Assembly (NCBI GenBank): GCA_905233895.1
Contig: CAJOFL010000019.1
Coordinates: forward strand, 1,799 to 65,798
DNA length: 64,000 nt
Origin: an uncultured Bacteroidales bacterium
Lineage (GTDB): Bacteria > Bacteroidota > Bacteroidia > Bacteroidales > P3
Reading direction: 5' to 3'
The notes beneath the pieces are model-generated. The model saw only the letters and a program-made list of their open reading frames with translations, did no database searches and was not told where the DNA came from. Position numbers and translations under genes: made by a program. Shown here piece by piece: positions 9,054 to 59,783 of the stretch; the stretch's first letter is position 1; every line of letters begins with the position of its first letter.

Positions 9054-9060
9054 GAACGCT

Positions 9061-9501
9061 ATGAATATCAAGAGTATAATACTTGCCGTCGCCCTGGTCG
9101 CAGTGGCTGTTCCCTGTGCCGCCCAGCGCGATTCCCGTGCGCGGCATGACGAACGCAAGCCCAAGGAGATAACCGAGATGGTGGGCGACCTCAGCCAGTC
9201 GCAGAAGAAACGTCTCGACGATATCACCGACGCCTCGAAGCAGCGCGTCGCCGCCCTTCGTGCCCAGAAGAAGGCTGTGCGCGACAGCATCAACACCTAT
9301 ATGCGGCTCGACGGCGACCAGTCGGCCGTCCTCTTCCCGCTCTTCGACCGCGAAGCACAGCTGCAGCGCGAAATCTCGCGCGAGATGTACACCACCAAGG
9401 TACGGGTCGACGAGGTGCTCACCCCCGAACAGCGCAAACAACTGCGCCAGGCATCGGACGCTAAGCGGAGCGACCCGCCCAAGAAGAAACTCAAAAAGTA
9501 G
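9061..9501 (+). CDS. Periplasmic Spy/CpxP-like (LTXXQ-motif) protein
   Basis: Signal peptide MNIKSIILAVALVAVAVPCAAQ, helical charged body, LTPEQRKQL motif. The internal ATG at 9061 is preferred over 9031. Confidence 0.5.
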   Translation: MNIKSIILAVALVAVAVPCAAQRDSRARHDERKPKEITEMVGDLSQSQKKRLDDITDASKQRVAALRAQKKAVRDSINTYMRLDGDQSAVLFPLFDREAQLQREISREMYTTKVRVDEVLTPEQRKQLRQASDAKRSDPPKKKLKK

Positions 9502-26200: not shown

Positions 26201-26570
26201 AGGTGATGTTGATATAGATGTCGCCTATGTAGGAATGCTCCATGTTGAGGCGGATGTATTTTATGTCCTGCACCGAGGTGATGGTGGCACCGGTGGCGAA
26301 GTCAGTGAATGTGACCGGTGAACGGTAGGAACATCCTAGGGTGCCGCAAGGCATGCCATCGGGCAGGAAGATGCGGTCGCTGTGGCCGAGGGTGGCATGT
26401 CCGGTGTCAACCACTATGTTGAAGGAACTGTTGTAGCCGAAACTGACCATTGTGTCGGTGCCGGCACAGATATCGGTGGGGAAGTTGATGGACGTGAAGG
26501 ACTGGCTGAAGCCGGCGAGTGGCGTCAGGATGAGGGTCATCATCGTTGCTATGAGCCTGTTCAGTTTCAT
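23253..26570 (-). CDS. T9SS type-B-CTD surface protein (1105 aa): split P-domain-like N-terminus, about 14 G(C/A)DS modules, gliding-motility C-terminal domain
   Basis: Signal peptide. P-domain motifs HSYIGDIYINITCPNGQ and GEWYIEVIDGFSQDNGYVFEWELAL. C-terminus PNAFTPN...WIYNRHGNLVY...WDGRDLNGNDCRQGAYVYK...GTILLIR. Confidence 0.85.
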   Translation of the reverse strand: MKLNRLIATMMTLILTPLAGFSQSFTSINFPTDICAGTDTMVSFGYNSSFNIVVDTGHATLGHSDRIFLPDGMPCGTLGCSYRSPVTFTDFATGATITSVQDIKYIRLNMEHSYIGDIYINITCPNGQKADIMRFGGTNNSSCPIPAASDGWLSGSNMSTGAFFGEAYDYGASNKCDSTASLNQPGIGWNYCWSNNTTSGYSYAPGDAIVYRSANAISSINHFFSPPHTHSTVDSSNVAAHTNFYHPDQSFSNLIGCPLNGEWYIEVIDGFSQDNGYVFEWELALDPSLIPSPCSIDEKIIVSGYSTQIDDTTFTIHVPDDLTADTTVQFTLMIVNSCGDTVDTTIYVNLRTPAMGVDYDTVCESFTFLGTTYTASDTVHIQGLSQYGCDSLTVLNFTVNHHHDTVYHDTVVENNFPYIFNGYQITPQVEQATIMLDTVTTAGCDSNITVILTVGFNTFDTIIDTVCRHTLPYTFEMQELAPQSDDFSATIYYNTWLGADSAITLMLHINDDDTLTLTDTIVENQLPFAFGSELFGTAEDTTIAYLNREGCDSTVRFRLHVWPNVTTTVDSTVCRHQLPVLFNGLSLHPIANDTTASVVLTECHGADSTVTIQLHVNPDYNVQQADTVVENQLPVTVNGATFTAPADTVFNLASLQGCDSTVHYTLHIWYNAYSTVDTTLCRHELPLNFHRRLISPAGTDTTVIITIQTIQGADSIITLNLHVNPDNYVDVADTVVQNQLPVTFDGAVFSRPTDTIFLHTNQYGCDSTVHYSLHVWNNYHVTVDTGICANHFPIAWQGVEFNGADTVVLNLTSIHGADSVVTLQMHTYPVYDTSIAAEICDNQSYVLGGQRITTAGQHSALLSTINNCDSLVHLDLTVWPTYHAFFTDTVCASSGIDFDGVHYMQSGIYTHRHPTVHGCDSLLTLDLNLRGLNLEARAKIVPLIPTPENLTVELRDASRANIDRMWIVGDMTSHQKIVSFTYPEAEDSVEAWLIAYSQDECADTAITIIRIDRSTLFAPNAFTPNQETNERWQLIGMQVENLNVWIYNRHGNLVYTYSGIDGSWDGRDLNGNDCRQGAYVYKAEYNTTMHPDRPQSITGTILLIR

Positions 26571-31557: not shown

Positions 31558-31565
31558 TACAAACT

Positions 31566-31597
31566 GCAAATATAGTAAATTAATATTATATAGCAAA
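31566..31597 (-). promoter_or_regulatory. Promoter of the T9SS-cargo operon: -33 TTTG (31594-31597) and -7 TATATTTG (31566-31573), minus strand
   Basis: Both boxes are present on the minus strand with a 20-nt spacer. The -7 box ends only 8 nt before the ATG at 31557, so the leader would be very short. Confidence 0.6.
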
Positions 31598-43863: not shown

Positions 43864-46800
43864 ATGAAAAAAAGTTTGATATTCACCATCCTGATTGCCA
43901 CCTGCCTGTGTGCGGTGGCGCAAAGGGAAACGACAGGGAGCCGCCAGCGCGACCTTTACAGGCAGGCGACCGACCTTTATCAGAAGCAGAAGTACGCTGC
44001 CGCACAGCAAATCTACGACCAGATAGTGGCCTCTGCTGCTGGGAATGCCGACCTCACCACTGCCGACGCCTGCTATTATGCCGCCGTCTGTTCTGAGAAG
44101 CTCGACAATGATGACGCCTACTACCGCCTGGAGGAGTTCCTGCGCCTGTATCCCCAGAGCAGCCGCGGCACGATGGCCCGTTTCTACTTGGGCAATTTCT
44201 ACTATTCCCGCGGTGACTACGACCGTGCACTTGAGTACTACCGTACTGTCGATGCCGCCGAGGTGGAGTTTGATCACCGTTCGGAGTATAACTTCAAGAT
44301 TGGCTATTGTTATTTCCAGAATGGCGAGACGGTCAAGGCTGCGCGCTATTTTTCGCAGCAGGTGGGCGGCCGTTCGAAGTATGCCTCCTCGTCGCTTTAC
44401 TACTATGCCCACATCCAGTATCAGAACGGTCAGTATGATTTGGCCCTCAAAAACTTCCAGGAGCTGAAGAAGGATCGTAAGTTTGCCAAGATTGCCCCGG
44501 CCTACATCGCCCGTATCTACTACTATCTTGGTCGCGACGACGAGTTTCTTGAGATGGCGCCGTCGCTGTTGAAGGATCACGATGCACTCAAACGCGACGA
44601 ACTTTACCGCATGATGGGCGAGATTTACTTCAACCGTGGCGAGTACAAGAAAGCCCTTGAGCAATACGAGCAGGTAGCCGCAAGCCAGTCGACTGCCGGC
44701 AATTGTACTCCGCAGGATATTGACTACCAAGTTGGTTACAGTTATTATATGGTTGGTCGCCATGCTGATGCCGCTCGCCATCTGGAGCGCAAAATCTCGT
44801 GCAACGACAGTGTTGCCCAAAGTGCTCTCTATGTACTTGGTGACTGCTATGTGGTTATGGGTCGCAAACGCGACGCCCGAAGCATGATGCTGCAGGCCTC
44901 GAAGATGGATTTCAACCCAGCCATCAAGGAGGACGCCCTCTTCAACTATGCCAAACTCAGTTGCGAACTCAACGAGAATGCCTACAATGAGAGTATCCGC
45001 TCAATGGAGAACTACCTCAAGAAGTATCCTAATTCGGTACATAAGACCGAGGTGCAGGAGATTCTCACGGGGCTTTATTGCTCTACCAACAACTACAAGG
45101 AGGCCATCCGCCTGCTGGAACAGATACCCGACCGCAATACTGAATTGGAGAATGCCTATCAGCGTGCCGTGCTTAACCGTGGTATAGAACTCAGCAACAG
45201 CGGCAAGAAACAGGAGGGTGCCGAGATGTATGCCAAGGCTGTTCAGATCAACGCCCTGCCCAAGGTTACTGCCGATGCCAACTATCTGCTTGGTGAATAC
45301 CAGTATTCTGTTGGCCAATATGACAAGGCAGAGAAGAGTCTTAACAAGATGCTTCTCTCGTCGTATAAGAACAGTTCATCCTATGCCAACAAGGCCCGCT
45401 ACACTTATGGTTACCTTCTTATGCGCGGTGCCCGTTACGACGAGGCCCAGTCGGCCTTCGAGGAGTTGAGCACTCGCTTGAATGGCAGCAAGGACAAGCA
45501 GGATCAGATGATACAGCGCGATGTTTGGAACCGTCTCGGCGACTGCCTCTATGTCCAGAGCAAGTTTGAGGAGGCCATCGGCCAGTACGACAAGGTTATC
45601 GCCGCAAAGGGCAAGGATGCCGACTATGCCACCTACCAGAAGGCCCTCGCCTATGGTGCGCAAGGCAAGAATGCTGATAAGCTTACCTACCTCAACTATA
45701 TCTTCGAGCGGTATGACAACTCGCCGCTTCGCTCCAAGGCTATGCTTGAGATTGCCAACACATATATGATGTGCGACAATAATGAGATGGCCATGACCTA
45801 CTATTCCAACTTCATCAAGCAGTATCCGCAGAGCGTATATGTCAAGACAGCGTTGCTAAATCAGGGCCTTATTTACTATAATACCGACCGTGACGACCAG
45901 GCGTTGAAGACTTTCGACAGGTTGCTCACCGAGTATCCCGGTACCGACGAGGCTCGTGACGCCCTCACTACCGTAAAGAACATCTATATAGCCCAGAACC
46001 GTGTGGATGACTACTTCAGCTACGTGAAGCGCACCACCAAAGTGACAATCTCCACCGTCGAGCAGGACAGCACCACCTTCCTTGCTGTAGAGGGGCGCTA
46101 CCAGGAGGGTGATTACGAGAATGCCGCCGCCGGGCTGGAGGGTTACCTCTCTAAGTTCCCCTCGGGGCTTTTTGCTGTTAAGGCACATTATCTTTTGGCC
46201 GATAGCTATTTCCGTCAGGGTCAGAACGACCGTGCCTTGCCGCATTATATTGCGGTGGCTTCGGCAGGTAAGAACCAGTATAGCGAGCGGTCGCTCTACA
46301 ATGCCGCAAATATAGCCTACAGTCTTGGTGAATTCACCCAGGCCGCCACGCTCTACCAGCGCCTCTGCGAAGGTGCCGAGAGCGACAACAGCCTGCTTCA
46401 GGGTGAAATAGGAGGTCTGCGCTGCGCAGCCGCTCTGCATCGTCACAGTGATGTGATGCAGGCCGGACACCGTCTACTTGACGAGCCCAAGGCTACACCA
46501 GAACTGAAGGATGAGGCCTATCTGGCCATGGCTCGCAGTTTCTTTGACAACGGGATGTCTGATAGCGCATTTGCCTACTACCTGCACTTGACTGGTTCGC
46601 CCAACGGTGAGTACAACGGCGAGGCCCGTTGTCGCCGTGCAGAGATTCTTATACGCCAGAACCGTTCGCAAGAGGCCGAAGCGATGATTGAGCAGATTGT
46701 CAGCGACGCCTCGTCCGACTACTGGCTGGCCTACAGTTTTATCCTTTGGGCCGACATATACTATTCCCGAGGCAATACTCTTCAAGCCAAGCAGACGCTC

Positions 46801-46932
46801 CAGAGCATCATTGAAAACTATGATGGTGAGGAATTGGTAAATGTGGCTCGCAGTAAGTATGAACTCATTGTGAGCGAGGAACAGCGTCAACAGCAGCCTG
46901 AAGAAGAGGAAGAAATAACCATAGAACTATAG
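43864..46932 (+). CDS. Large secreted tetratricopeptide-repeat protein (1022 aa)
   Basis: Signal peptide and many 34-aa TPR-like units (A..Y..A......Y..A...F) along the whole length. Confidence 0.8.
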   Translation: MKKSLIFTILIATCLCAVAQRETTGSRQRDLYRQATDLYQKQKYAAAQQIYDQIVASAAGNADLTTADACYYAAVCSEKLDNDDAYYRLEEFLRLYPQSSRGTMARFYLGNFYYSRGDYDRALEYYRTVDAAEVEFDHRSEYNFKIGYCYFQNGETVKAARYFSQQVGGRSKYASSSLYYYAHIQYQNGQYDLALKNFQELKKDRKFAKIAPAYIARIYYYLGRDDEFLEMAPSLLKDHDALKRDELYRMMGEIYFNRGEYKKALEQYEQVAASQSTAGNCTPQDIDYQVGYSYYMVGRHADAARHLERKISCNDSVAQSALYVLGDCYVVMGRKRDARSMMLQASKMDFNPAIKEDALFNYAKLSCELNENAYNESIRSMENYLKKYPNSVHKTEVQEILTGLYCSTNNYKEAIRLLEQIPDRNTELENAYQRAVLNRGIELSNSGKKQEGAEMYAKAVQINALPKVTADANYLLGEYQYSVGQYDKAEKSLNKMLLSSYKNSSSYANKARYTYGYLLMRGARYDEAQSAFEELSTRLNGSKDKQDQMIQRDVWNRLGDCLYVQSKFEEAIGQYDKVIAAKGKDADYATYQKALAYGAQGKNADKLTYLNYIFERYDNSPLRSKAMLEIANTYMMCDNNEMAMTYYSNFIKQYPQSVYVKTALLNQGLIYYNTDRDDQALKTFDRLLTEYPGTDEARDALTTVKNIYIAQNRVDDYFSYVKRTTKVTISTVEQDSTTFLAVEGRYQEGDYENAAAGLEGYLSKFPSGLFAVKAHYLLADSYFRQGQNDRALPHYIAVASAGKNQYSERSLYNAANIAYSLGEFTQAATLYQRLCEGAESDNSLLQGEIGGLRCAAALHRHSDVMQAGHRLLDEPKATPELKDEAYLAMARSFFDNGMSDSAFAYYLHLTGSPNGEYNGEARCRRAEILIRQNRSQEAEAMIEQIVSDASSDYWLAYSFILWADIYYSRGNTLQAKQTLQSIIENYDGEELVNVARSKYELIVSEEQRQQQPEEEEEITIEL

Positions 46933-50164: not shown

Positions 50165-51193
50165 ATGCAAAAGATAACGCTTGGACGCAGCGGCCTTGTG
50201 GTGCCGCGCAACGGATTCGGCGCTCTCCCCATTCAGCGCATCCCAATGGACGATACCGTTCGCCTCGTCCGTCGTGCTCTTGATGGAGGCATGTATTATT
50301 TCGACACTGCTCGCTTCTATACTGACAGCGAGGAGAAACTCGGCGTGGCCCTCAAGGGTCGTCGCAAAGAGGTGATAATCAGCACTAAGACCGGTGCTAC
50401 CACCGCTGAGGGTTTCTGGCGCGACCTAGAGACCAGCCTCCGGCTGTTGCAAACTGACTATGTCGACCTCTATCAGTTCCATAATCCTGCTTTTTGCCCC
50501 AAGCCGGGTGATGGCAGCGGACTTTATGAGGCTATGCAAGAAGCTGTGTGTCAGGGTAAGGTGTTGCATATTGGTATAACTAACCACCGTCAGTTTGTGG
50601 CTCGGGAGGCTATTGAGAGCGGTTTGTATGAAACCCTTCAATATCCCTTTTCATATCTTGCCACAGATGCTGATATTGAAATAGTTGAGATGGCTCGTCG
50701 TGCAGATATGGGCTTCATTGCCATGAAGGGGCTCAGCGGCGGCCTTATCACCAATAGCGCCGCGGCCTATGCCTGGCTGGCCCAGTATGACCACGTGGCT
50801 CCCATTTGGGGTATCCAACGCGAGAAGGAACTCGACGAGTGGCTTTCGTATCAGGAAAATCCACCTCAACTGACGGATGAACTTCGTGCATTTATCGACC
50901 ACGACCGCAAAGAGTTGAGTGGTGATTTTTGCCGAGGCTGTGGCTACTGCCAGCCCTGTCCGGCGGGCATCCAGATACAGGATTGTAACCGCATGTCGCT
51001 CTTCCTCCGTCGCGCCCCCCATAGCGTTTACTTGACGGAAGAATGGCTCCACGAGATGGAGAAAATCGACGGCTGCCTGCACTGCAACCATTGCGTTGAG
51101 CATTGCCCCTATGGCCTTGATACACCCAATCTGCTTGTGCGTAACTATGAGGACTTCAAGCAGTTCTGGGCTAATAGAAATATTGCTGGCTGA
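50165..51193 (+). CDS. Aldo/keto reductase with a C-terminal Cys-rich Fe-S-type extension
   Basis: AKR N-terminus LGRSGLVVPRNGFGALPIQR and FDTARFYTDSEEKLG. C-terminal CRGCGYCQPCP and CLHCNHCVEHCP motifs. Confidence 0.82.
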   Translation: MQKITLGRSGLVVPRNGFGALPIQRIPMDDTVRLVRRALDGGMYYFDTARFYTDSEEKLGVALKGRRKEVIISTKTGATTAEGFWRDLETSLRLLQTDYVDLYQFHNPAFCPKPGDGSGLYEAMQEAVCQGKVLHIGITNHRQFVAREAIESGLYETLQYPFSYLATDADIEIVEMARRADMGFIAMKGLSGGLITNSAAAYAWLAQYDHVAPIWGIQREKELDEWLSYQENPPQLTDELRAFIDHDRKELSGDFCRGCGYCQPCPAGIQIQDCNRMSLFLRRAPHSVYLTEEWLHEMEKIDGCLHCNHCVEHCPYGLDTPNLLVRNYEDFKQFWANRNIAG

Positions 51194-51285
51194 TTTTGAT
51201 GCCAATTTTTTTCCGGGGGCAAAAAATGAAACTATGCAAACGGCGTTTGCTCCCCTAAAAGGTATTTTTGCCCTTGGTATAGGGT

Positions 51286-51378
51286 AGGCGTTGGTCAGGC
51301 GTTGATCAGGCGTTGATCAGGCGAAGGTGGGTCTAAATGTCTGGAATTCTTGTGGTTATGTTAATTTTAACATTATAA
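51286..51378 (+). repeat. Modular intergenic repeat, copy 5 (B-type tail). Core is 51286-51332.
   Basis: Unit order GGTC, GATC, GATC, then AGGCGAAGGTGGGTC. The tail GTTATGTTAATTTTAACATTATAA ends exactly at the trmO ATG. Confidence 0.85.
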
Positions 51379-52050
51379 ATGTCTGATTTGAAGCAGATTG
51401 CACATATTGAGTCACCCTTCGGTTCGAAGTTTGGTGTTCCTCGTCAGGCGGGTCTTGCTGCTGCTGGTGCTCGAGTGGTTTTCGAACCAGAATATCGCGT
51501 TGAAGAGGCCGTTCGAGGACTGGAAGAGTTTGACTATGTGTGGCTTATATGGCGGTTTCACCAAGCCGAACGTTCCGAGTGGTCTCCTACTGTCCGACCT
51601 CCGCGCTTGGGAGGCAATCAGCGGGTGGGGGTATTCGCCACCCGTAGTCCGTTTCGCCCTAATCCGTTGGGCCTCTCAGCGGTACGGTTGCTGCGCGTTG
51701 AGCATGACTCCCAGTTGGGACCGGTGCTTTACGTCGAAGGCGCAGACCTCGTCGACGGTACTCCGATTTTTGATATTAAGCCATATATCCCATACGCCGA
51801 TGCCCATTCAGATGCACGTTCTGGTTTCGCCCCCGATGCCCCGTGCCCTAAACTATCTGTGGATGACCCTGATGGAGTGACCCTCGAAATGCCGGACAAC
51901 CTACGTAAGGCGCTTTTTTCTGCCCTTGCACTTGACCCGCGCCCCAGTTATCAACATGATCCTCAACGCATTTACACTATGTCGTTCGCTGGCTGTGAAG
52001 TGTCGTTCAAGGTTGTTGGCGAAAGATTAATAATTGTTAAAAAATGTTAA
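51379..52050 (+). CDS. trmO: tRNA (t6A37-N6)-methyltransferase TrmO (TsaA/YaeB family)
   Basis: Motifs ESPFGSKFGVPRQ, RSPFRPNPLGLS and DGTPIFDIKPYIPY. Confidence 0.88.
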   Translation: MSDLKQIAHIESPFGSKFGVPRQAGLAAAGARVVFEPEYRVEEAVRGLEEFDYVWLIWRFHQAERSEWSPTVRPPRLGGNQRVGVFATRSPFRPNPLGLSAVRLLRVEHDSQLGPVLYVEGADLVDGTPIFDIKPYIPYADAHSDARSGFAPDAPCPKLSVDDPDGVTLEMPDNLRKALFSALALDPRPSYQHDPQRIYTMSFAGCEVSFKVVGERLIIVKKC

Positions 52051-52089
52051 CGCTGTAACAATTCGCCTGTTTTTGCGTCAAGTATAAAA

Positions 52090-52608
52090 ATGAGCATGGA
52101 TAATGCACAGATGGTGAAGGGTTGCCGCCGCCGCGACGCCAAAGCCCAGCGGGCTCTCTATGATGCTATGGCTCCGATGGTTACCGGTGTGTGTGTCCGT
52201 TATGCCAAGAGTCATGTAGAGGCCCAGGATATTGTGCAGGACGTGTTTATAAAGGTGTTTGAGCGGATAGCGACGCTCGGCGAAAGCGAGAGTCTCAAGT
52301 CGTGGGTCTACTCGTTGACGGTCAACACCTGTATTGACCACTGCCGAAAGCGGCGCAAGTGGCTGTCGTTCGACGATTTGGGTGCTGATGTACCAGCCGT
52401 GGACACCGACCCTTACGCCATGGATGATATCGTGACGGCCATGCAACAGTTGTCGCCGATGCTGCGTACGGTGTTCAACCTCTGTGACGTAGAGGGATAC
52501 ACACTTGACGAAGCTGCCGCCCGCCTCGAGAGTAACAATCTGGCAATCAGGGTGGCACTCTGTCGTGCTAGAGAAAGAATGAAGGAAATATTGACAAAAG
52601 AGATATGA
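52090..52608 (+). CDS. RNA polymerase ECF-type sigma-70 factor
   Basis: Region 2 (AQDIVQDVFIKVFERI...LKSWVYSLTVNTCIDH) and region 4 (VFNLCDVEGYTLDEAAARLESNNLAIRVALCRARERM). Confidence 0.9.
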   Translation: MSMDNAQMVKGCRRRDAKAQRALYDAMAPMVTGVCVRYAKSHVEAQDIVQDVFIKVFERIATLGESESLKSWVYSLTVNTCIDHCRKRRKWLSFDDLGADVPAVDTDPYAMDDIVTAMQQLSPMLRTVFNLCDVEGYTLDEAAARLESNNLAIRVALCRARERMKEILTKEI

Positions 52609-53411
52609 ACCTCAAAGACTATCAAGAAAAGCCTGCCGATGGGCTGTTTGAGAAAATCCAGCGCCGTATGGCCGTGCGCCGTGCGCTGAGCATGGGCGGT
52701 TTTGCCACAGCCATAGTCGTCGTTGTCGCTGCAACGTTGCTACTTCAGCCTCGCATTGAGGAGAATGAAGTGGCCGTTGGCACTCTGAGTAATGTGGAAC
52801 CCGTTGTTGATGTGCAGGTTGCCCCTGCCGTTGATTTGACATCTCCTGCCGCCGTTACTGTCGGCAATACTGATTCCGCTGTGCTTCAGCCGGTGGGTAC
52901 CGTTATTGCAATGCCAATTGATACCACCGCCGATGACCACGAATACCTCGCCGCCATGTTGCCGCAAGGGCTTCCCGAGGTTGCAAAACTGAACGAGGCT
53001 GCAGCAGAAGAGCAGAGTATGTCTACAAGTGTGTCTATTGGAACGGTCGACTCAGCTCCATCCACTGTGCCTGATGTAATCATACCTTCAACAAAAACAG
53101 ATAAGTCTGGTCAGCCCGTGCCGCATTACGACAATGTCATTTGGGCTCCAAATCTGATTGTTCCCGATGGCGATGTGGATGAAAACCGACGTTTTTCAAT
53201 TAAGGCGACTTCTGATATCTCCAACTTTAAGATACATATTTACAACCGTAACGGTCGTCGTATCTACCTCGCCACCGACCCCTCGTTTGCATGGGATGCC
53301 ACGATGGACGGAGTTCGCGTACCTCAGGGTGCCTACGTATGGGTTGCCACATTCCGTGATTCCGACGGCAATCCGCGTCAGGAACAGGGTACTGTAACAG
53401 TAATAAGATAG
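52605..53411 (+). CDS. Anti-sigma-like single-pass membrane protein ending in a T9SS type-B (gliding-motility) C-terminal domain
   Basis: ATGA overlap with the sigma gene. About 30 aa of cytoplasmic N-terminus, then TM segment FATAIVVVVAATLLL, then a low-complexity linker. C-terminus APNLIVPDGDVDENRRF...IHIYNRNGRRIY...WDATMDGVRVPQGAYVWV...GTVTVIR. Confidence 0.7.
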   Translation: MNLKDYQEKPADGLFEKIQRRMAVRRALSMGGFATAIVVVVAATLLLQPRIEENEVAVGTLSNVEPVVDVQVAPAVDLTSPAAVTVGNTDSAVLQPVGTVIAMPIDTTADDHEYLAAMLPQGLPEVAKLNEAAAEEQSMSTSVSIGTVDSAPSTVPDVIIPSTKTDKSGQPVPHYDNVIWAPNLIVPDGDVDENRRFSIKATSDISNFKIHIYNRNGRRIYLATDPSFAWDATMDGVRVPQGAYVWVATFRDSDGNPRQEQGTVTVIR

Positions 53412-53436
53412 AAATATATCATCCTACGTAAGGTTC

Positions 53437-53486
53437 AAAGGAACAGTGCGTTACTAGACGTGCTGTTCCTTTGTGTTATTTTTTAT
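53437..53486 (+). terminator. Rho-independent terminator
   Basis: 14-bp stem AAAGGAACAGTGCG / CGTGCTGTTCCTTT (two G-U pairs), 8-nt loop, T-rich tail. Confidence 0.75.
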
Positions 53487-53509
53487 ATTTATATATCAAA
53501 AGAAAGTCG

Positions 53510-53517
53510 TATCTTTG
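53510..53517 (+). promoter_or_regulatory. -7 box TATCTTTG upstream of rnpB
   Basis: Consensus -7 box about 12 nt before the predicted RNA 5' end. The -33 box is only TTTA. Confidence 0.6.
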
Positions 53518-53528
53518 CACCCGAAAAA

Positions 53529-53900
53529 GAGAGCGGGGGCCATCCTATCGCCCGGCCGCAAGGCTGGGAGGAAAGTCCGGGCAGCACGAGCCACCATGCT
53601 TCCTAACGGGAAGCGGCTATTCGGGTAATCGGATAGTCAGAGAGAGCGCCACAGAAAAGATACCGCCGACAAAAGGCTTCCTTGGCCTAGTCGGTAAGGG
53701 TGAAAACGCGGGGTAAGAGCCCACGACATGACCGGGAGACTGGCATGATGGCAAGCCTCATGGGCTGAAAGACCATGTAAACCGACAGTTGAGGGCAGGC
53801 TCGCCCGACGTCGGAGGGTAGGTTGATTGAGATTGCTGGTGACAGCAACCCTAGATTGATGATAGGACACGACAGAACCCGGCTTACAGGCTCCGCCCTT
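53529..53900 (+). ncRNA. rnpB: RNase P RNA, bacterial type A
   Basis: Universal P4 strands GGAGGAAAGTCCGGGC (5') and ACAGAACCCGGCTTA (3'). P1 pairing of GCGGGGGCC with GGCTCCGC. T-run after the 3' end. Ends are approximate, within about 5 nt. Confidence 0.92.
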
Positions 53901-53915
53901 TTTTTGATTGAAGTG

Positions 53916-54707
53916 ATGAAAAAGACAATATACATTGCATTTGCGGCCATCTTGTTGGCTGGATGTTCCGGCAGGTACATTGGACAGCCGCGTGAGGCCA
54001 TGCTCCTCTATCAAACTGAGCCAACCTATGGCTCGCTTTATTCATTGGCTTCGGCCTATGCCGATAATATCAATGCTGCCGTTGCAGCCGACACTCTGCA
54101 TCCCGGCATGTATGCCGACTATGGTGTGGCGTTGGCTCTTATGGGCCATAATGAAGAGGCCTGTCACATGATGAATGTTGAGGTAAAAGCCTTCCCGCAG
54201 AGTATTGGTATGATGCGGCGTATTTCGGCCCGAATCCTTCCAGATTGCGATATTGCCGGTGGTGGGCTGTATATGCACGACACTGCCGACCGCACACGCC
54301 TTGCGGCTTGGGCGTACGACTCCATTTCCGCATTACGCTCCCTACCTCCGATTGCCTCGGTTATTGACAGTACCGATAGCGTACGGGTGGCTATGCAGAC
54401 CCCTGTTGATTCTGTCGATCGTCCAGTGCGCCTCACGGCCAATCAGAAACGCATTCTGTTGGAGCAGCAGCAGAACCGTGAAGCCCGTATGGCACAGGCA
54501 TCAAAAGATTCGGTGGCTGCAGCCAAGCAGGCTAAGATAAAGGCTCGTAACCAGGCACAGGCCGACAAGAAGAAGGCCAAGAAGGATAAAGAACGTGCCA
54601 AGAAGGCTGCAGAGAAAGCCAAGAAGCAGGCTGCCAAGGAGAAGAAAAAACAGCAGCAATTGGCTCGTGAAGCCGCCAAGCAATCAAAGAAAGGAGGCTC
54701 GAAGTGA
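53916..54707 (+). CDS. DUF4810-like lipoprotein with a Lys/Ala-rich C-terminal tail
   Basis: Internal ATG at 53916 (MKKTIYIAFAAILLAGCSG, lipobox). The track start at 53823 lies inside rnpB. TPR-like body YADYGVALALMGHNEEA. About 70-aa basic tail. Confidence 0.6.
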   Translation: MKKTIYIAFAAILLAGCSGRYIGQPREAMLLYQTEPTYGSLYSLASAYADNINAAVAADTLHPGMYADYGVALALMGHNEEACHMMNVEVKAFPQSIGMMRRISARILPDCDIAGGGLYMHDTADRTRLAAWAYDSISALRSLPPIASVIDSTDSVRVAMQTPVDSVDRPVRLTANQKRILLEQQQNREARMAQASKDSVAAAKQAKIKARNQAQADKKKAKKDKERAKKAAEKAKKQAAKEKKKQQQLAREAAKQSKKGGSK

Positions 54708-55477
54708 TACGCAGATTAATTATAATTGCCATTGCGACAGTGGCCCTTATGGCATGTAGTGGACAAAAACGCCTTGAGCAGTACAAGGATGTATACACCG
54801 AACGTCCGACAACCATATATGTGGCTCCCGTTGATGATCGTTCCCAACATAAGGCCGTGCGCGAGACAAAGGACTCCGTCTACAATGCTTCCATTTCCAT
54901 TGCCGCCAAGCAACTCTATCTTACCGCAGCAGACCCCTTGACGGATATGGGTTATTATGTGCTTGGTCCACTGGCTTCTGCCCAGATTGCTGCAACTGAG
55001 ACGCGTACAGGTAAGCAACTCCGCAATGAGAATATCAACGATTACAGTACCGAACTCGGTATCGATGCCATACTCTTTATCGACTTGATAAGTTGGAAGC
55101 AGACATCAAATTCATGGACTGCCGAAATAGAGTATACTCTCCGTTCTACGCATACCGGTGCCGAGCTAATGCATGTCTGGGTTAATTCCACCAAATTTCT
55201 GCATACCGATCACAAAGGCAATCCCAAGCCCCTCAGTGACGACTTGCGCTTTGCCGAGCGGTATGGCTGTGACCTTGAGACCGCACAGCGTTGCCGACTG
55301 GTGGAGATAACCAATCAGTATGTCCTTCGCGACCTCCCGAGTGGTGAGCGTGCTCGAGTTTACGATGCCGAGCGTTATGTGCAGTCGCATCCGGAATATT
55401 TCTATCTCCGTATTCAGCGCGATGGTACCGTGGAGCTCTTTCGTACTGACCAGATAGAACTCTCCAATGAGAATTGA
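54704..55477 (+). CDS. GNA1162/DUF799-family lipoprotein
   Basis: Lipobox ALMACSG, then TIYVAPVDDRS and AILFIDLISW blocks. Overlaps the upstream gene by 4 nt. Confidence 0.65.
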   Translation: MIRRLIIIAIATVALMACSGQKRLEQYKDVYTERPTTIYVAPVDDRSQHKAVRETKDSVYNASISIAAKQLYLTAADPLTDMGYYVLGPLASAQIAATETRTGKQLRNENINDYSTELGIDAILFIDLISWKQTSNSWTAEIEYTLRSTHTGAELMHVWVNSTKFLHTDHKGNPKPLSDDLRFAERYGCDLETAQRCRLVEITNQYVLRDLPSGERARVYDAERYVQSHPEYFYLRIQRDGTVELFRTDQIELSNEN

Positions 55478-56192
55478 AGTATCGCTCACCCCGGCGCTCT
55501 ATTCCTTCCGTACCATTACGTCGGGTCATACGACTGTTGCAATTGACGTCCTTCGCGCCACCACCGCCGTATGTGCCGCATTTCAAGCGGGTTGTTGCGA
55601 GGTTGTGCCGCTTGACAGCCTTGAGGCGTTGGACTCCTACCGCACGGAAGGCTACGCTATCGCTGCCGAGAGGGGAGGGAAGAAACTTCAAGGGTCGGAC
55701 TACGGCAACTCGCCTACTGAATATTTGCGCAATGACATGACTGGCATTCGTCTGGCCTACAGTACCACCAACGGCACGGTATGTATCCTCAGAGGTGCTG
55801 ATGCCGATACTACGTTTGTGGGTGCATTCGTCAATCTTACGGCATTGGCTGAACGGCTGCGCAATGCCGGCCGTGATACGGTGCTGCTCTGCAGCGGATG
55901 GCAAAATGACTTCTGCATTGAGGACACGCTGATGGCGGGTGCGCTGTTGGAACGCCTCGCCGATGTTGCTACCCCTTACGGCGACGCGGCCCAGATGGCT
56001 CTCTCCCTCTGGCAGATGGCCAAGGATGATCCATACAAATATTGCCGCCGGTGTAGCCATGTTCATCGCCTCGAAGGGTTTGGTGCAGTGGAGGATATCG
56101 TATTTGCCTTCCGTCAGGACACATGTCCAGTGGTACCGGTACTGATAGATGGAAAATTGACTTGTGCCCCCCGAAGGGGTGGCGAACACTAA
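55467..56192 (+). CDS. comB: 2-phosphosulfolactate phosphatase (ComB) family protein
   Basis: VAIDVLRATTAVCAAFQAGC motif and family-typical length (241 aa). Confidence 0.75.
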   Translation: MRIEVSLTPALYSFRTITSGHTTVAIDVLRATTAVCAAFQAGCCEVVPLDSLEALDSYRTEGYAIAAERGGKKLQGSDYGNSPTEYLRNDMTGIRLAYSTTNGTVCILRGADADTTFVGAFVNLTALAERLRNAGRDTVLLCSGWQNDFCIEDTLMAGALLERLADVATPYGDAAQMALSLWQMAKDDPYKYCRRCSHVHRLEGFGAVEDIVFAFRQDTCPVVPVLIDGKLTCAPRRGGEH

Positions 56193-56911
56193 TGAAATTA
56201 AGCGAAGCGAAATATAATAAAGTGAGCAACATTGAAATTCATAATACTGGTAAAGGGTTACAGCGTGTAGTGGTATACGTTGTGGCTTTCGCTTTTCACT
56301 TTTCGCTTTTCACTTCAGCGTTTGCAGTGGCTCAGACCGACACCACGGCTCTGCGGATTCATAGTTTGCAGCCGATACCCCTTGTGTCTGGTGCTGCTCT
56401 CGGCGGTGCGGGAACGCTGCTCACCTTCCAACCCGAGATAAACCGTCTGGCGGTGAGCCTTCATGACAATGTGGATGCTGCCAACTTTCCTCAAATGTCA
56501 GCCGATGACTATATACAGTATCTCCCGGCGATTGCACCAGTGGCGCTGAATCTCTGCGGACTGCACAGCCGCCATCCTCTTGGTCGGATGATGATGCTCG
56601 AAGGGGGCAGTTACCTCCTCGGAGCAGGGTGGCTCAATGCGTTGAAGTACGGCATCGGAGTCGAGCGGCCCGACAACTCGAGGTTCAACAGTTTCCCGTC
56701 AGGCCACACCTTCGTGGCCTTTACTGGTGCCGAGTTAATACGGCGCGAGTACGGAGAGGAGTACCCATGGGTGGCTGTAGCCGGATATGCTGTAGCCATT
56801 GCGGTGGGAGCCATGCGGATCTACAACGACCGTCACTGGTTGGGCGACGTGCTGGCCGGCGCTGGATTGGGAATCATGAGCGTCACACTGGTATACTGGG
56901 CGCTGGATTAA
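56192..56911 (+). CDS. PAP2-superfamily phosphatase (membrane)
   Basis: Motifs SFPSGHT and MRIYNDRHWLGDVLAG. The start is uncertain: the ATG at 56192 is preferred over 56123, which overlaps comB. Confidence 0.8.
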   Translation: MKLSEAKYNKVSNIEIHNTGKGLQRVVVYVVAFAFHFSLFTSAFAVAQTDTTALRIHSLQPIPLVSGAALGGAGTLLTFQPEINRLAVSLHDNVDAANFPQMSADDYIQYLPAIAPVALNLCGLHSRHPLGRMMMLEGGSYLLGAGWLNALKYGIGVERPDNSRFNSFPSGHTFVAFTGAELIRREYGEEYPWVAVAGYAVAIAVGAMRIYNDRHWLGDVLAGAGLGIMSVTLVYWALD

Positions 56912-56944
56912 AATATGAACTAAGAAATAAGAACTAAGAATAAG

Positions 56945-58645
56945 ATGAAACTTTTTAGCAACATTAAGGGCGATTTGTTCGGCGGCGTGACCGCCGGTAT
57001 CGTAGCGTTGCCGTTGGCACTGGCCTTCGGCATACAGGCCTTCAGCGGCGTGAGCGACCCGCAAGCGGCTTCCATTGGTGCTTACGTGGGCCTCACCGGA
57101 GCTATGCTCCTCGGTTTCTTCGCTGCCCTCTTCGGTGGCACCCACAGCCAGATTTCTGGTCCTACTGGACCGATGACCGTGGTAACTGCCACCCTCGTCA
57201 CTGGTGCGTGGACCGCCTCCAACGGAAGCCTCTCCGAGGTGATGCTCTCCATGGCGCTCGCCGCTATCTTCTGCGGCCTATTCCAGATCCTTTTCGGTCT
57301 CATCAAGTTGGGCAAGTATGTGCGCTACATACCTTATCCAGTCCTCTCGGGATTCATGAGCGGTATCGGCGTCATCATCATCATCCAGCAGCTTTATCCG
57401 CTGGTGGGCGCTAGCAAGGGCGGTCCGATGCTCGGAATGCTGGCGGGTCTGCCCGAAGCCTTTGCCCAAACCAGCCTCACCGCGCTCCTTCTCGGACTCG
57501 GCACGGTGGCCATCGTTTACCTCTTCCCGCTGCTGACCAAGAAGGTTCCCTCCACCCTGGTGGCCCTTATCGTGATGACCGTCGTGTCGCTCTTCATCGA
57601 TATGGACGGTGTGGCCACCATCGGTAAGATTCCGTCGGGCCTCCCGATGCCCTTCTTCGCGAAAGAAGGAGTCACGTTGGCCGGTATCAACTGGGGTACC
57701 GTGCTGGTGGCCGCCCTTATCCCGGGTCTCACTCTCGCCGGTCTGGGTTCTATCGACACGTTGCTCACCTCCGTGGTGGCTGACAATATCACCAAGACCA
57801 AACATAACTCCAACCGCGAGTTGATAGGGCAGGGTATAGGTAACGCCATCGCTGGCCTGTTCTGCGGTCTGCCCGGTGCGGGTGCTACCATGCGCACCGT
57901 GGTCAACGTAAAGAGTGGCGGCCGCACCCAGCTTTCCGGCATGGTCCACGCCCTTCTGCTTCTGGCCATAATGCTCGGCTTGGGTTCGGTGGTGCAGTAT
58001 GTGCCGCTGTCAGTGCTGGCCGGTATCCTTATCACCGTCGGCTGGGGTATCATCGACTTCAAGGGCTTCAAGGACCTGCTCAAGATACCGCGCGCCGACG
58101 CCGTGGTGCTTGTCGTGGTCTTCCTCGTCACCGTCTTCGTCGACCTGCTCACCGCGGTCGGTATTGGTATGGTTATCGCCTGCGTCCTCTTCATGAAGCG
58201 CGCCTCCGACCTCGTCGAGGGCGGCTACAGCAGCCAAGAGATGACCAACTTCGACAAGGAAAGCCCCTGGAGCGACGAGGGTGGAATGCCCGACACCGTG
58301 GCCCACAAGATCTACGTCCAGCGCTTGAACGGCCCCATCTTCTTTGGCACCATCAACAAGTTCAAGGAGGTGATGCAGACCGTTCCCGAGAGTGCACGTA
58401 TAGTCATCATCCGCATGCGTCTGGTGAGCTTTATGGACCAGAGCGGCCTTTACGCTATGGAGGAGGCCATCAAGGACCTCCAGGCGCGTGGCGTCGAGGT
58501 GCTTATGACCATCATCCAACCCCAGCCCATGTACATGCTGACCACCCACAAGGTCATCCCCGGCGTCGTTCCCGAAGACCACACCTTCAAAACCTTCGAA
58601 GAGTGCACTGCATTCCTGAGGAATGAATTGAGAGTTGAGAATTGA
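56945..58645 (+). CDS. SulP-family anion transporter with a C-terminal STAS domain
   Basis: GDLFGGVTAGIVALPLALAFG N-terminus, a polytopic core, and a STAS domain (LNGPIFFG...FMDQSGLYAMEEAIKDLQARGVEV). The last 7 codons lie in the cassette inverted repeat. Confidence 0.93.
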   Translation: MKLFSNIKGDLFGGVTAGIVALPLALAFGIQAFSGVSDPQAASIGAYVGLTGAMLLGFFAALFGGTHSQISGPTGPMTVVTATLVTGAWTASNGSLSEVMLSMALAAIFCGLFQILFGLIKLGKYVRYIPYPVLSGFMSGIGVIIIIQQLYPLVGASKGGPMLGMLAGLPEAFAQTSLTALLLGLGTVAIVYLFPLLTKKVPSTLVALIVMTVVSLFIDMDGVATIGKIPSGLPMPFFAKEGVTLAGINWGTVLVAALIPGLTLAGLGSIDTLLTSVVADNITKTKHNSNRELIGQGIGNAIAGLFCGLPGAGATMRTVVNVKSGGRTQLSGMVHALLLLAIMLGLGSVVQYVPLSVLAGILITVGWGIIDFKGFKDLLKIPRADAVVLVVVFLVTVFVDLLTAVGIGMVIACVLFMKRASDLVEGGYSSQEMTNFDKESPWSDEGGMPDTVAHKIYVQRLNGPIFFGTINKFKEVMQTVPESARIVIIRMRLVSFMDQSGLYAMEEAIKDLQARGVEVLMTIIQPQPMYMLTTHKVIPGVVPEDHTFKTFEECTAFLRNELRVEN

Positions 58646-58652
58646 GAATTAT
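58625..58652. repeat. Left inverted repeat of the four-helix-bundle cassette
   Basis: GAATTGAGAGTTGAGAATTGAGAATTAT. Its reverse complement matches 59031-59060 with one mismatch and one 2-nt indel. Confidence 0.85.
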
Positions 58653-59016
58653 GGACAACGACAAAAATCTCATCGGAGAAAAAAGTATGGATTTCGCAGT
58701 AAGGTGTGTAAATCTTTACAAATATCTTTCTCAGGAAAAGAGCGAATACATCATGAGCAAACAGGTGTGTCGAAGTGGAACCAGTGTGGGTGCCAATATT
58801 AGAGAAAGCCGTAATGCCCAAAGCACATCTGACTTCATCAATAAACTCAATATTGCTCTTAAGGAAGCTGATGAAACTCAGTTCTGGCTGGAGTTGCTGT
58901 ATAGAACACAATATATTGGAGAGAAAGAATTTAATTCAATTAACAATGATATTGACGAGATTATATCAATCTTGACTGCATCAATTAAAACCACTAAGAA
59001 AAAAATAGACAAATAA
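58651..59016 (+). CDS. Four-helix-bundle protein (23S rRNA intervening-sequence protein / Avd-like family)
   Basis: Motifs SKQVCRSGTSVGANIRES, DFINKLNIALKEADETQFWLELL and an EFNSINNDIDEIISIL pattern. Visibly AT-rich compared with the flanking genes. The ATG at 58651 is preferred over the TTG at 58642. Confidence 0.82.
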   Translation: MDNDKNLIGEKSMDFAVRCVNLYKYLSQEKSEYIMSKQVCRSGTSVGANIRESRNAQSTSDFINKLNIALKEADETQFWLELLYRTQYIGEKEFNSINNDIDEIISILTASIKTTKKKIDK

Positions 59017-59030
59017 ATTTAACATGGGTT

Positions 59031-59064
59031 GATAATTCTCAATTTTCAACTCTCAATTTTCAAT
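59031..59064. repeat. Right inverted repeat of the four-helix-bundle cassette
   Basis: ATAATTCTCAATTTTCAACTCTCAATTTTCAATT, 9 nt before the yebC ATG. Confidence 0.85.
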
Positions 59065-59072
59065 TTATAATT

Positions 59073-59783
59073 ATGGGTAGAGCATTTGAATACCGCAAAG
59101 CGAGAAAACTGAAACGTTGGGGTCATATGGCCCGCACCTTTACCAAGATTGGCAAGGAAATCGAGTTGGCTGTGCTGGCCGGAGGTCCAGACCCGTCGAG
59201 CAACCTGCGTCTGCGCCTGCTGATGCAGACCGCCAAGAGCGAGTCAATGCCTAAGGAGAACGTCGAGCGTGCCATCAAGCGCGCCACCGAGAAGGACCGC
59301 TCGGCCTACAAGGAGGTGGTCTACGACGGCAAAGGCCCCCACGGCGTCGCTATCGTGGTGGAGACCGCCACCGACAATCCCACCCGCACCGTCGCCAACC
59401 TGCGCGCCGCCTTCGTACGCGGCAAGGGTGAGTTGGGCACCATGGGCATGAACGACTTCCTCTTCGAGCGCAAGTGCTCGTTCGTCGTCGCCTGGCGTGA
59501 CGATATCGATATGGACGAGTTGGAGCTGGAGCTTATCGACTGCGACATCGACGAGGTGTTCCGCGACGAGGACGAGATTCTTATCTATGCCGACTTCGCC
59601 AACTACGGCCCCATCTCCAAGTTCCTCGAGGACAAGGGTCTGGAGATAAAGAGCTTCAAGTTTGAGCGTATACCGCTCACCACCCGCGAGCTCTCCGAAG
59701 AGGAGCAGGAGGATGTCAATGGTCTCCTCGAGCGCCTCGAGAACGATGATGACGTGGTCAACGTGTTCCATAACATGGCGTAA
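59073..59783 (+). CDS. yebC: YebC/PmpR-family transcriptional regulator
   Basis: MGRAFEYRKARKLKRWGHMARTFTK N-terminus. Full-length family pattern, 236 aa. Confidence 0.93.
   Translation: MGRAFEYRKARKLKRWGHMARTFTKIGKEIELAVLAGGPDPSSNLRLRLLMQTAKSESMPKENVERAIKRATEKDRSAYKEVVYDGKGPHGVAIVVETATDNPTRTVANLRAAFVRGKGELGTMGMNDFLFERKCSFVVAWRDDIDMDELELELIDCDIDEVFRDEDEILIYADFANYGPISKFLEDKGLEIKSFKFERIPLTTRELSEEEQEDVNGLLERLENDDDVVNVFHNMA

Follow-up and report, generated by a model that had tools for sequence, protein, structure and literature searches.

A Bacteroidales ECF sigma factor gene is paired with a gene for a putative membrane-anchored anti-sigma factor ending in a type-B T9SS sorting domain

The DNA analysed here is a 64-kb stretch (64,000 nucleotides, hereafter the window) from an uncultured rumen Bacteroidales bacterium. 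It contains an ECF sigma factor gene (52090-52608, plus strand) encoding 172 aa, followed by a gene (52605-53411, plus strand) encoding a protein of 268 aa, referred to here as the partner. Both ORFs and the ATGA overlap between them, reported in the initial annotation, were verified in the sequence, with the partner ATG at 52605-52607 and the sigma stop codon TGA at 52606-52608. An ECF-type promoter-like element, TGTAACA-N15-GCGTCAA (52054-52081, plus strand), ends about 9 nt 5′ of the sigma start codon. This element fits the AAC...CGT-type promoter expected upstream of an ECF sigma factor's own gene, and it is likely to be the autoregulated promoter of the sigma gene. Nearly every orthologous locus has an equivalent promoter-like element at the same position 5′ of the sigma gene; in these elements the -35-like box is GTAACA, ACAACA or GAAATTT and the -10-like box, [CT]GTCTAT, starts 13-17 nt before the sigma ATG. 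Across the 64-kb window, GTAAC-N15-18-CGTC occurs five times against 1.8 matches expected; a single match is intergenic, namely the presumed autoregulatory site, and no second intergenic copy was found in the window. At the opposite end, a strong intrinsic terminator consisting of a 17-bp stem followed by a T-run (53436-53483, plus strand) lies 25 nt past the partner stop codon. Judged from the sequence, the promoter, sigma gene, partner gene and terminator are best explained as a putative self-contained ECF sigma/anti-sigma operon.

The product of 52090-52608 is an ECF (group IV) sigma factor by both Pfam and NCBIfam profiles. It matches Sigma70_r2 (E 1.6e-16) and Sigma70_r4_2 (E 2e-9) in Pfam, as well as TIGR02937 at 71.1 bits (cutoff 42.9), and at 172 aa it has the composition that defines ECF members, which contain only the sigma-2 and sigma-4 domains in about 170-200 aa. 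Among named NCBIfam models, NF058625 (sigma_PG0214/GFO_1088 family) comes closest, its score of 89.6 bits lying below the cutoff of 130. The window encodes one other ECF sigma factor, and the two share just 22% identity over 83 aa.

The partner begins with a conserved cytoplasmic segment, MxLKDYxxxPDEGLFEKIxRRLRVRR (aa 1-27; 52605-52685, plus strand), delimited by homologue alignment and presumed to be a sigma-binding helix. Among 34 diverse homologues, P10, R25 and R26 are invariant, and conservation is 90% or higher at K4, G13, F15, I18, R21 and R29. The segment is followed by a single TM helix (aa 28-46; 52686-52742, plus strand), a signal anchor with the N-terminus in the cytoplasm that was assigned by hydrophobicity. 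This is the most hydrophobic 19-residue window of the protein (family median Kyte-Doolittle 2.46), with an Arg-rich flank on its N-terminal side and W-P often directly after it, and AlphaFold2 predicts one continuous helix over residues 14-46. Met22 was considered as the true start, in which case the protein would open with a plain signal peptide, and was ruled out. The annotated start is real and a mis-called signal peptide is excluded, since conservation covers residues 1-21 but not Met22, in place of which most homologues have Leu. A word-index homologue search with the N-terminal 48 aa returned three fragments, with hydrophobic TM words dominating the candidates.

Classical anti-sigma domains (class I; ASD, zf-HC2 or RskA) are cytoplasmic and helical, comprise roughly 80-90 residues, and are detectable by profiles. 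The initial annotation had described the partner as having the usual anti-sigma layout. The stretch of about 30 cytoplasmic residues and the single TM helix hold, but the cytoplasmic part, at 27-30 residues, is far too short for a classical domain, and when anti-sigma N-terminal profiles were searched for, as that annotation had suggested, neither Pfam nor NCBIfam gave a match to an anti-sigma family at E≤1.

Beyond the TM helix, the partner continues as a variable, low-complexity periplasmic linker of about 133 aa (aa 47-179; 52743-53141, plus strand), defined by pLDDT and alignment and presumed to act as a tether. The linker is predicted to be disordered, with AlphaFold2 pLDDT below 50 at residues 53-65, 67-112 and 137-166. 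Its sequence, in which A, V, P, E, T and S are abundant, is unconserved; its length is constrained, with a median of 141 aa and an interquartile range of 136-147 among 181 proteins. A fixed length of this kind would fit a tether spanning a set distance.

The remainder of the protein (aa 180-268 plus the stop codon; 53142-53411, plus strand) is a type-B T9SS C-terminal domain (CTD) with the CHU_C beta-sandwich fold, as supported by Pfam, AlphaFold2 and Foldseek. The initial annotation had assigned this domain from the sequence and proposed profile searches with CHU_C and TIGR04131. In these searches, residues 181-265 match Pfam CHU_C (PF13585) well above the gathering score of 27, at 44.1 bits (E 2.3e-11), and the match to TIGR04131 is marginal, at 33.6 bits against a cutoff of 35. 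The latter score, together with the low complexity of the middle of the protein, could be taken to mean that chance or an annotation artefact accounts for the CTD match or even for the ORF. The probability of this is negligible, and the reading is refuted by the homologue and profile evidence: besides the CHU_C score, the domain is modelled with pLDDT above 90, hundreds of full-length homologues have the same layout, and identity to bona fide cargo CTDs is 33-39%. Foldseek matches of the CTD include those of PorZ, PorU and NucA, the last in a T9SS complex. The motifs PN..P.GD..N..F, IYNR.G, WD, PQGAYVW and GTVTVIR are common to the partner CTD and genuine cargo CTDs, at 24-39% identity overall, and the five conserved blocks that the partner CTD has in common with canonical cargo CTDs, both from the window and from other members of the phylum, are invariant in the partner family. 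In the type-B CTD of SprB, mutating any single one of five conserved motifs (A to E) blocked secretion (PMC12618676); the five partner blocks may correspond one to one to these motifs.

The window also contains three tandem genes for type-B CTD cargo (23253-31596, minus strand), with CHU_C scores of 47.9, 49.7 and 57.6 bits and matches to P_proprotein and PKD. All three carry CHU_C, and so the claim that the partner CTD is of the same type as those of the neighbouring cargo proteins is upheld; their presence also indicates that this genome uses type-B T9SS sorting. These three proteins have ordinary signal-peptide-like N-termini and P-domain and PKD passengers. Similarly, type-B cargo that works with PorP/SprF shuttles, as in SprB-SprF and PG1035-PorP-PorE (PMC9143113, PMC12618676), has the same CTD family and motifs as the partner, but is made with a cleavable Sec signal peptide and passenger domains and is usually encoded next to a PorP/SprF gene. 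The partner instead has a cytoplasmic segment of 27-30 aa before its helix, which serves as a signal anchor, and no AxA signal-peptidase site past the helix is conserved across the family. It also has no passenger in the Bacteroidales family (family 1) and no adjacent shuttle gene. Indeed, tblastn with a PorP/SprF-like protein found no PorP/SprF-like gene in the window or in 34 orthologous loci. By analogy with Fjoh_1677 of F. johnsoniae, an orphan PorP/SprF-like shuttle may be encoded elsewhere in the genome.

The Bacteroidales partner family comprises 255 clusters at 50% identity (E≤1e-30), nearly all of 260-320 aa and of the same layout. It has so far been found only in uncultured Bacteroidales and is large in rumen Bacteroidales. 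Within the 34 Bacteroidales loci, the sigma gene adjoins the partner gene in all 31 of 31 cases. The entire 10-kb neighbourhood of these loci is syntenic (AKR, TrmO, sigma, partner, RNase P RNA, lipoproteins, SulP), and this adjacency therefore does not count as independent support for linking sigma factor and partner functionally.

Independent support for the link comes from a second family (family 2) in aquatic Flavobacteriales, whose members are annotated as Crocinitomicaceae. These proteins begin with an N-terminal motif and a TM helix and end in a type-B CTD, and most of them carry PKD domains. The family 2 gene is located directly 3′ of an ECF sigma gene in seven of seven loci, overlapping it by 8-14 nt in several and otherwise separated by at most 17 nt, and the pairs occur in at least two different genomic contexts. 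The sigma factors of these pairs are 31-35% identical to the one at 52090-52608 (E 1e-24 to 1e-34). Alignment of the N-termini of the two families with hhalign gave a probability of 31%, which makes N-terminal homology between them only suggestive. In three of the loci (L043, L044 and L045), SprB/PKD/CHU_C proteins of 1785-5122 aa are encoded 37-80 nt downstream of the family 2 gene, with no terminator evident between the two genes in these loci. The position of the pair upstream of giant type-B cargo points to a probable functional tie with type-B secretion.

These two families bear on whether the partner is an anti-sigma factor at all. It could instead be a small surface protein of the type-B T9SS kind whose unusual signal anchor is left uncleaved or is cleaved late, simply co-transcribed with the sigma factor and perhaps one of its targets. 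Such a reading would agree with the public annotation of partner-type proteins, which are named only as gliding-motility or PKD CTD proteins, with the absence of anti-sigma model matches, and with the fact that the Bacteroidales adjacency lies inside a fully syntenic block. However, a cytoplasmic segment of 27-30 aa with invariant residues is unlike the n-region of a signal peptide, and the pairing of sigma and partner genes, often overlapping, recurs in all seven loci of the distant family. Moreover, family 1 has nothing to display, since it carries only a disordered linker and no passenger domain. A comparably short N-terminus is also a proven sigma-binding module in Dma1, of which residues 1-40 suffice for binding its ECF sigma factor (PMC10927553). 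The surface-protein reading is thus considered quite improbable, and the initial reading of the two genes as a sigma factor and its partner is strengthened by the family-wide conservation of the N-terminus and by family 2.

A different question is what the CTD does. In the PorA-PorXY-SigP system of P. gingivalis (PMC7712824, PMC12152298), a regulatory T9SS CTD informs an ECF sigma factor on the secretion system, and it acts from the periplasmic side even when PorA is held at the inner membrane by a tether (PMC12152298). PorA differs in being secreted cargo in its own right, made with a signal peptide, and its signal passes through the histidine kinase PorY and the response regulator PorX to SigP, whereas here the presumed anti-sigma factor carries the CTD as a direct fusion. 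The partner may be an anti-sigma factor whose beta-sandwich, though descended from a type-B CTD, makes no contact with the T9SS translocon or its shuttles and only senses or binds some ligand or protein of the periplasm, much as the PorA CTD binds PorY. Its fold is of a generic Ig-like type, for which Foldseek also returns PKD, CopC and Fn3-like domains. In addition, a tethered protein is not fully translocatable, no PorP/SprF gene is located nearby, and the conserved region of the partner CTD covers only about 95 aa, compared with the 150-235 aa of the type-B signals tested in F. johnsoniae (PMC12618676). Nevertheless, cargo-type motifs have been kept at positions that are invariant across the family, the linker has the constrained length of a tether reaching a fixed, distant target, and three Flavobacteriales loci have the pair immediately upstream of giant type-B cargo. 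A pure sensor role is regarded as unlikely.

We favor, at roughly even chances, the view that the partner acts as a minimal anti-sigma factor that spans the envelope in the manner of Dma and has a type-B T9SS signal at its distal end, coupling sigma release to engagement of the T9SS, as the initial annotation suggested, or of PorP/SprF. The Dma family, described in 2024, is restricted to Bacteroidota, and its genes follow ECF sigma genes. Dma proteins combine a very short cytoplasmic N-terminus, one TM helix and a long intrinsically disordered periplasmic region, by way of which they cross both membranes (PMC10927553), with a C-terminal module destined for the outer membrane, and proteolytic release of the sigma factor is the mechanism proposed for them. 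The partner matches this architecture in its short N-terminus, TM helix, disordered region and ECF sigma neighbour, the likeness being one of architecture. The C-terminus of Dma, however, is an 8-stranded outer-membrane beta-barrel (OMP_b-brl_2), whereas that of the partner is a soluble CHU_C beta-sandwich; without a barrel, any attachment to the outer membrane would be non-covalent, through T9SS components. The sigma factors of Dma belong to group ECF21; the nearest NCBIfam model for the sigma factor described here is NF058625, at a sub-cutoff score.

In the proposed Dma-like mechanism, the sigma factor would be kept at the inner membrane by a cytoplasmic helix made up of the first 27-30 residues of the partner. 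The TM helix would anchor the protein, and the disordered linker of about 140 residues and fixed length would cross the periplasm, allowing the type-B CTD to dock on the secretion machinery of the outer membrane, where its contact would be a PorP/SprF-type shuttle or else the SprA translocon. Type-B CTDs stay uncleaved and bound to PorP-like outer-membrane barrels (PMC9143113). Because it stays anchored in the inner membrane, the partner cannot be fully secreted, and since this tether blocks T9SS transit and only the short region noted above is conserved, its CTD may bind the machinery without translocation. Engagement of the CTD, or its loss, would then alter tether tension or exposure to a protease, and regulated proteolysis would release the sigma factor, so that the state of type-B secretion is reported to transcription. 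We infer each of these elements, from sigma binding by the N-terminus and contact between the CTD and the T9SS to proteolytic release, its direction and the regulon.

An analogy can be drawn with flagellar type III export. There, the anti-sigma factor FlgM carries an export signal, and the activity of sigma-28 thus reports secretion competence and times the expression of late substrates. FlgM is soluble and fully exported and belongs to an unrelated protein family and secretion system, whereas the partner is membrane-anchored. A tentative, FlgM-like version, less likely than not, would make the partner a tethered decoy substrate at a T9SS checkpoint: the CTD would be captured and pulled by a working translocon or PorP/SprF shuttle, the anti-sigma factor cleaved, and the freed sigma factor would activate type-B cargo. 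[quoted passage not shown] A further parallel is FecA-FecR-FecI, in which a single-pass anti-sigma factor contacts an outer-membrane protein with its periplasmic end and relays the signal to an ECF sigma factor. FecR differs in that its cytoplasmic domain is sizeable and its periplasmic domain is of the FecR/STN-interacting kind, and it has no secretion signal.

The initial annotation knew of no described example of such a protein, and the literature searched here likewise contained no described anti-sigma factor with a T9SS CTD. Close precedents do exist in Dma (2024) and in the signaling of the PorA CTD to PorXY-SigP (2020, 2025), the nearest systems already known. Apart from PorA-PorXY-SigP of P. 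gingivalis, little is understood of the way in which Bacteroidota adjust the expression of T9SS cargo and adhesins to their capacity for secretion. If the proposed reading is true, no wire from the secretion machine to RNA polymerase could be shorter than an anti-sigma factor fused directly to a type-B sorting domain, and the Dma principle of envelope-spanning anti-sigma factors would extend to a second kind of distal module. Hundreds of proteins whose sole annotation at present is 'gliding motility-associated C-terminal domain' or 'PKD domain' would then be probable regulators. Should culturable Flavobacteriales carry family 2, the hypothesis would be directly testable by standard genetics.

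With regard to the regulon, a promoter-motif search of the 64-kb window and of L043-L046, the four matching family 2 loci, identified no regulon member. In each of these four loci, GGCAAC-N15-18-CGTC occurs in one copy, located upstream of the sigma gene. The element found upstream of family 2 sigma genes is GGCAACC-N15/16-CGTC, and ECF-type promoter-like elements precede the sigma genes in both families.

The ECF sigma factor gene (52090-52608, + strand) encodes a 172-aa protein with Sigma70_r2 (E 1.6e-16) and Sigma70_r4_2 (E 2e-9) domains in Pfam and a TIGR02937 score of 71.1 bits (cutoff 42.9). Its nearest named NCBIfam model, NF058625 (sigma_PG0214/GFO_1088 family), reaches 89.6 bits, below the cutoff of 130. 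Located where the initial annotation placed them, this gene and that of its 268-aa partner (52605-53411) both lie on the + strand and overlap by ATGA, the partner ATG (52605-52607) running into the sigma stop TGA (52606-52608) when read in the sequence. An ECF-type promoter-like element, TGTAACA-N15-GCGTCAA (52054-52081, + strand), stands directly before the sigma start codon, and a terminator with a 17-bp stem and T-run (53436-53483, + strand) begins 25 nt past the partner stop codon. These elements bracket sigma and partner, which therefore constitute a two-gene operon. No second copy of the promoter motif was found within the 64-kb window. Directly 3′ of the terminator is a bacterial RNase P class A RNA (53531-53902, + strand; 232.5 bits), and the ORFs called across it are partly spurious, as is the case for the start of 53823-54707.

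The T9SS type-B C-terminal sorting domain (CTD) initially assigned to the partner is borne out by Pfam, where CHU_C matches residues 181-265 with 44.1 bits against a gathering score of 27; the TIGR04131 score, 33.6 bits, falls slightly under the cutoff of 35. A homologue search with the partner returned >120 proteins, each 260-310 aa long and containing CHU_C, and an exhaustive profile search gave 255 clusters (50% identity, E≤1e-30), with nearly all of the best 150 being full length. The sigma-partner feature is real, conserved, and widespread, and this homologue evidence refutes its interpretation as an artefact, which has practically no probability left. Conservation in this Bacteroidales family (family 1) was read from an alignment of 34 diverse members. 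The N-terminal ~30 residues are strongly conserved (MxLKDYxxxPDEGLFEKIxRRLRVRR, with P10, R25, and R26 invariant) and are followed by a hydrophobic helix, an unalignable middle, and the highly conserved last ~90 residues. Translation from Met22, which would yield a plain signal peptide, was ruled out: most homologues have Leu at this position, which shows that the long N-terminus is real and under selection. AlphaFold2 predicts a single helix across residues 14-46 and, with confidence, a beta-sandwich spanning residues ~180 to 268 (pLDDT >90); confidence is very low (pLDDT <50) in residues 53-65, 67-112, and 137-166. Foldseek groups the sandwich with Ig-like domains, among them the PorZ and PorU CTDs and the CTD of NucA in a T9SS substrate complex. 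Family 1 proteins lack a passenger domain. The linkers of 181 members abound in A, V, P, E, T, and S and vary little in length (median 141 aa, interquartile range 136-147); a tether that bridges a set distance would be expected to combine free sequence with fixed length in this way. Mid-linker (window 52920-52970, partner aa ~106-122) there is a semi-conserved short motif, hydrophobic-x-x-hydrophobic-[LV]-P-[QSKRD], exemplified by YLAAMLPQ, SSLLPQ, and ANILPR. It coincides with a four-residue helix (114-117) in the AlphaFold2 model and could be a docking or protease site.

A genome scan with family 1 conserved peptides also found canonical giant type-B cargo of 856-2082 aa, most with signal peptides and some adjoined by genes resembling PorP/SprF, the outer-membrane shuttle of such cargo. 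The CTDs of these proteins are 33-39% identical to that of the partner and have PQGAYVWV in common with it. Upon alignment with the giant-cargo and window-cargo CTDs, every conserved block is present in the partner: PN..P.GD..N..F, IYNR.G, WD, PQGAYVW, and GTVTVIR. In a study on the SprB type-B CTD, mutation of any one of five conserved motifs blocked secretion, and the partner blocks would correspond to the motifs A-E described there (PMC12618676). The retained motifs, together with the constraint on linker length and the association with cargo genes, speak against a CTD-derived sandwich that acts only as a periplasmic sensor and never touches the T9SS; such a sensor is unlikely, even though secretion of a tethered chain is impossible, the conserved part is only ~95 aa, and PorA sets a precedent. 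The window cargo genes, three in tandem at 23253-31596 (− strand), encode CHU_C proteins whose passengers are P-domains and PKD domains and whose signal peptides are ordinary, and Pfam detects CHU_C in all three and in the partner, in agreement with the earlier claim of a common CTD type. The cargo gene ends overlap by 4 nt at 26567-26570 and 29299-29302, which suggests translational coupling. Proprotein-convertase P-domains occur in two of the three proteins, both with no recognised protease domain. The TTG start listed at 31596 is probably wrong, and the ATG at 31557 leads to a normal signal peptide. T9SS core genes are presumed present in this genome, solely from its type-B cargo; a search of the window and the orthologous Bacteroidales loci revealed no PorP/SprF-like gene. 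A 1022-aa TPR protein with YbgF/BamD-like repeats (43864-46932, + strand) weakly matches the model for the T9SS lipoprotein PorW/SprE (74 bits against a cutoff of 250), probably through TPR similarity only.

The 34 orthologous loci all come from MAGs of uncultured Bacteroidales or Bacteroidetes, in most cases sampled from the ruminant gut. In 31/31 loci with enough DNA, the partner gene directly follows the sigma gene, mostly with -8 to +79 nt between the sigma stop and the earliest possible partner start. The syntenic order is aldo-keto reductase, TrmO, sigma, partner, DUF4810 lipoprotein, GNA1162-like lipoprotein, ComB-like protein, PAP2, and SulP. Since the entire neighbourhood is syntenic, adjacency within Bacteroidales is not independent evidence of a functional link. 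The promoter-like element upstream of the sigma gene is positionally conserved in these loci with variable boxes (-35-like GTAACA, ACAACA, or GAAATTT; -10-like [CT]GTCTAT), a pattern consistent with autoregulation of the sigma gene. The ~10-kb block (window 50165-59783), which also includes the RNase P RNA and one further gene, keeps its gene order in 25-34 MAG loci, with proteins merely 34-58% identical between loci; a ComB-like phosphatase and a SulP transporter are among its products. The DUF4810-like lipoprotein (28.7 bits, below the Pfam cutoff) adjoins the weakly GNA1162-like protein at window 53823-55477 (+ strand) with overlapping ends, and this pair is kept downstream of the operon in 32-34 loci.

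Recurrence of the pairing extends to a second family. In locus L043, from a Flavobacteriales MAG, an ECF sigma gene overlaps by 14 nt the gene of a 433-aa protein with a short N-terminus, a TM helix, two PKD domains, and CHU_C, followed by a gene for a 1785-aa type-B cargo protein. A search with the 433-aa protein returned ~30-35 clusters of 404-468 aa (family 2), some annotated as Crocinitomicaceae, which have in common the N-terminal motif FE..iK..L....yd...W.aiEk.Lp, a TM helix, and a type-B CTD, with PKD domains in most. An ECF sigma gene is immediately upstream in 7/7 contexts (L043-L049), including two divergent members whose CTD was detected by a local HMM only; several of these gene pairs overlap, three of them by 8 nt. 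GGCAACC-N15/16-CGTC precedes the sigma gene in L043-L046. Directly after the pair, L043 (6338-11695), L044 (9358-17320, on a 4.38-Mb contig), and L045 (9768-17329) encode giant SprB-repeat/PKD/CHU_C proteins (1785 to 5122 aa), 37-80 nt away with no evident terminator; L046 and L047 instead show hairpins resembling terminators. Just upstream, L045 encodes another CHU_C protein (167 aa) and a 1833-aa DUF7151 protein. The window sigma factor is 31-35% identical to all seven family 2 sigma factors (E 1e-24 to 1e-34), but only 22% identical, over just 83 aa, to the other window ECF sigma factor (8179-8736); the module therefore appears to share ancestry across the two orders. Profile-profile comparison aligned KDY..PdeGlFekIqrRL of family 1 with e..yd...W.aiEkrL of family 2 at only 31% probability, which is no more than suggestive of N-terminal homology. 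This repeated pairing in a distant family, the conserved cytoplasmic motif, and the lack of a passenger domain make it quite improbable that the partner is an ordinary T9SS surface protein whose signal anchor is unusual and whose gene is simply co-transcribed with sigma.

The pair is best filed as an envelope-spanning ECF anti-sigma variant similar to Dma, a Bacteroidota family of anti-sigma factors that span both membranes, with a T9SS type-B sorting domain as its distal module. In Dma proteins, a very short N-terminus leads into a TM helix, followed by a long disordered periplasmic stretch and, at the C-terminus, an outer-membrane beta-barrel; residues 1-40 of Dma1 pull down the sigma factor, and sigma release by proteolysis has been proposed (PMC10927553). 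Envelope-spanning anti-sigma factors thus exist, and in Bacteroidota ≤40 cytoplasmic residues can make up a working anti-sigma module. The partner has no beta-barrel and is not a member of Dma as defined. Nor is it canonical T9SS cargo, as it lacks the cleavable signal peptide that T9SS reviews ascribe to all substrates. Type-B CTDs are uncleaved and stay on PorP/SprF-like 14-stranded outer-membrane barrels (PMC9143113). We give an even chance to the partner being a minimal Dma-like anti-sigma factor whose CTD docks on the T9SS and whose tether is proteolysed to free sigma. The N-terminal helix would sequester sigma at the inner membrane, the disordered linker of fixed length would cross the periplasm, and the CTD would dock on outer-membrane T9SS components, either a PorP/SprF-type shuttle or the SprA translocon. 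Transit could not finish because the chain is anchored; capture or pulling of the CTD, or conversely lost docking, may then open the tether to proteolysis. That three Flavobacteriales loci have giant type-B adhesin genes immediately downstream of the pair favours a checkpoint logic, in which cargo would be expressed when secretion works, analogous to FlgM and sigma-28. PorA-PorXY-SigP signalling is conceptually adjacent. No description of an anti-sigma factor with a T9SS CTD emerged from literature searches, and public annotation describes partner-type proteins only as CTD or PKD proteins. The fusion of a presumed anti-sigma factor with a T9SS CTD would surprise specialists and offers a directly testable handle on sensing of T9SS state.

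Downstream of the other ECF sigma gene in the window (8179-8736, + strand; TIGR02937 87.8 bits), ORF 8664-9053 contains a small protein with a single hydrophobic helix, and next comes a 156-aa protein (9031-9501) with a signal-peptide-like N-terminus and abundant charged helical repeats. Together, 8179-9501 (+ strand) looks like a separate sigma/anti-sigma/periplasmic-protein trio.
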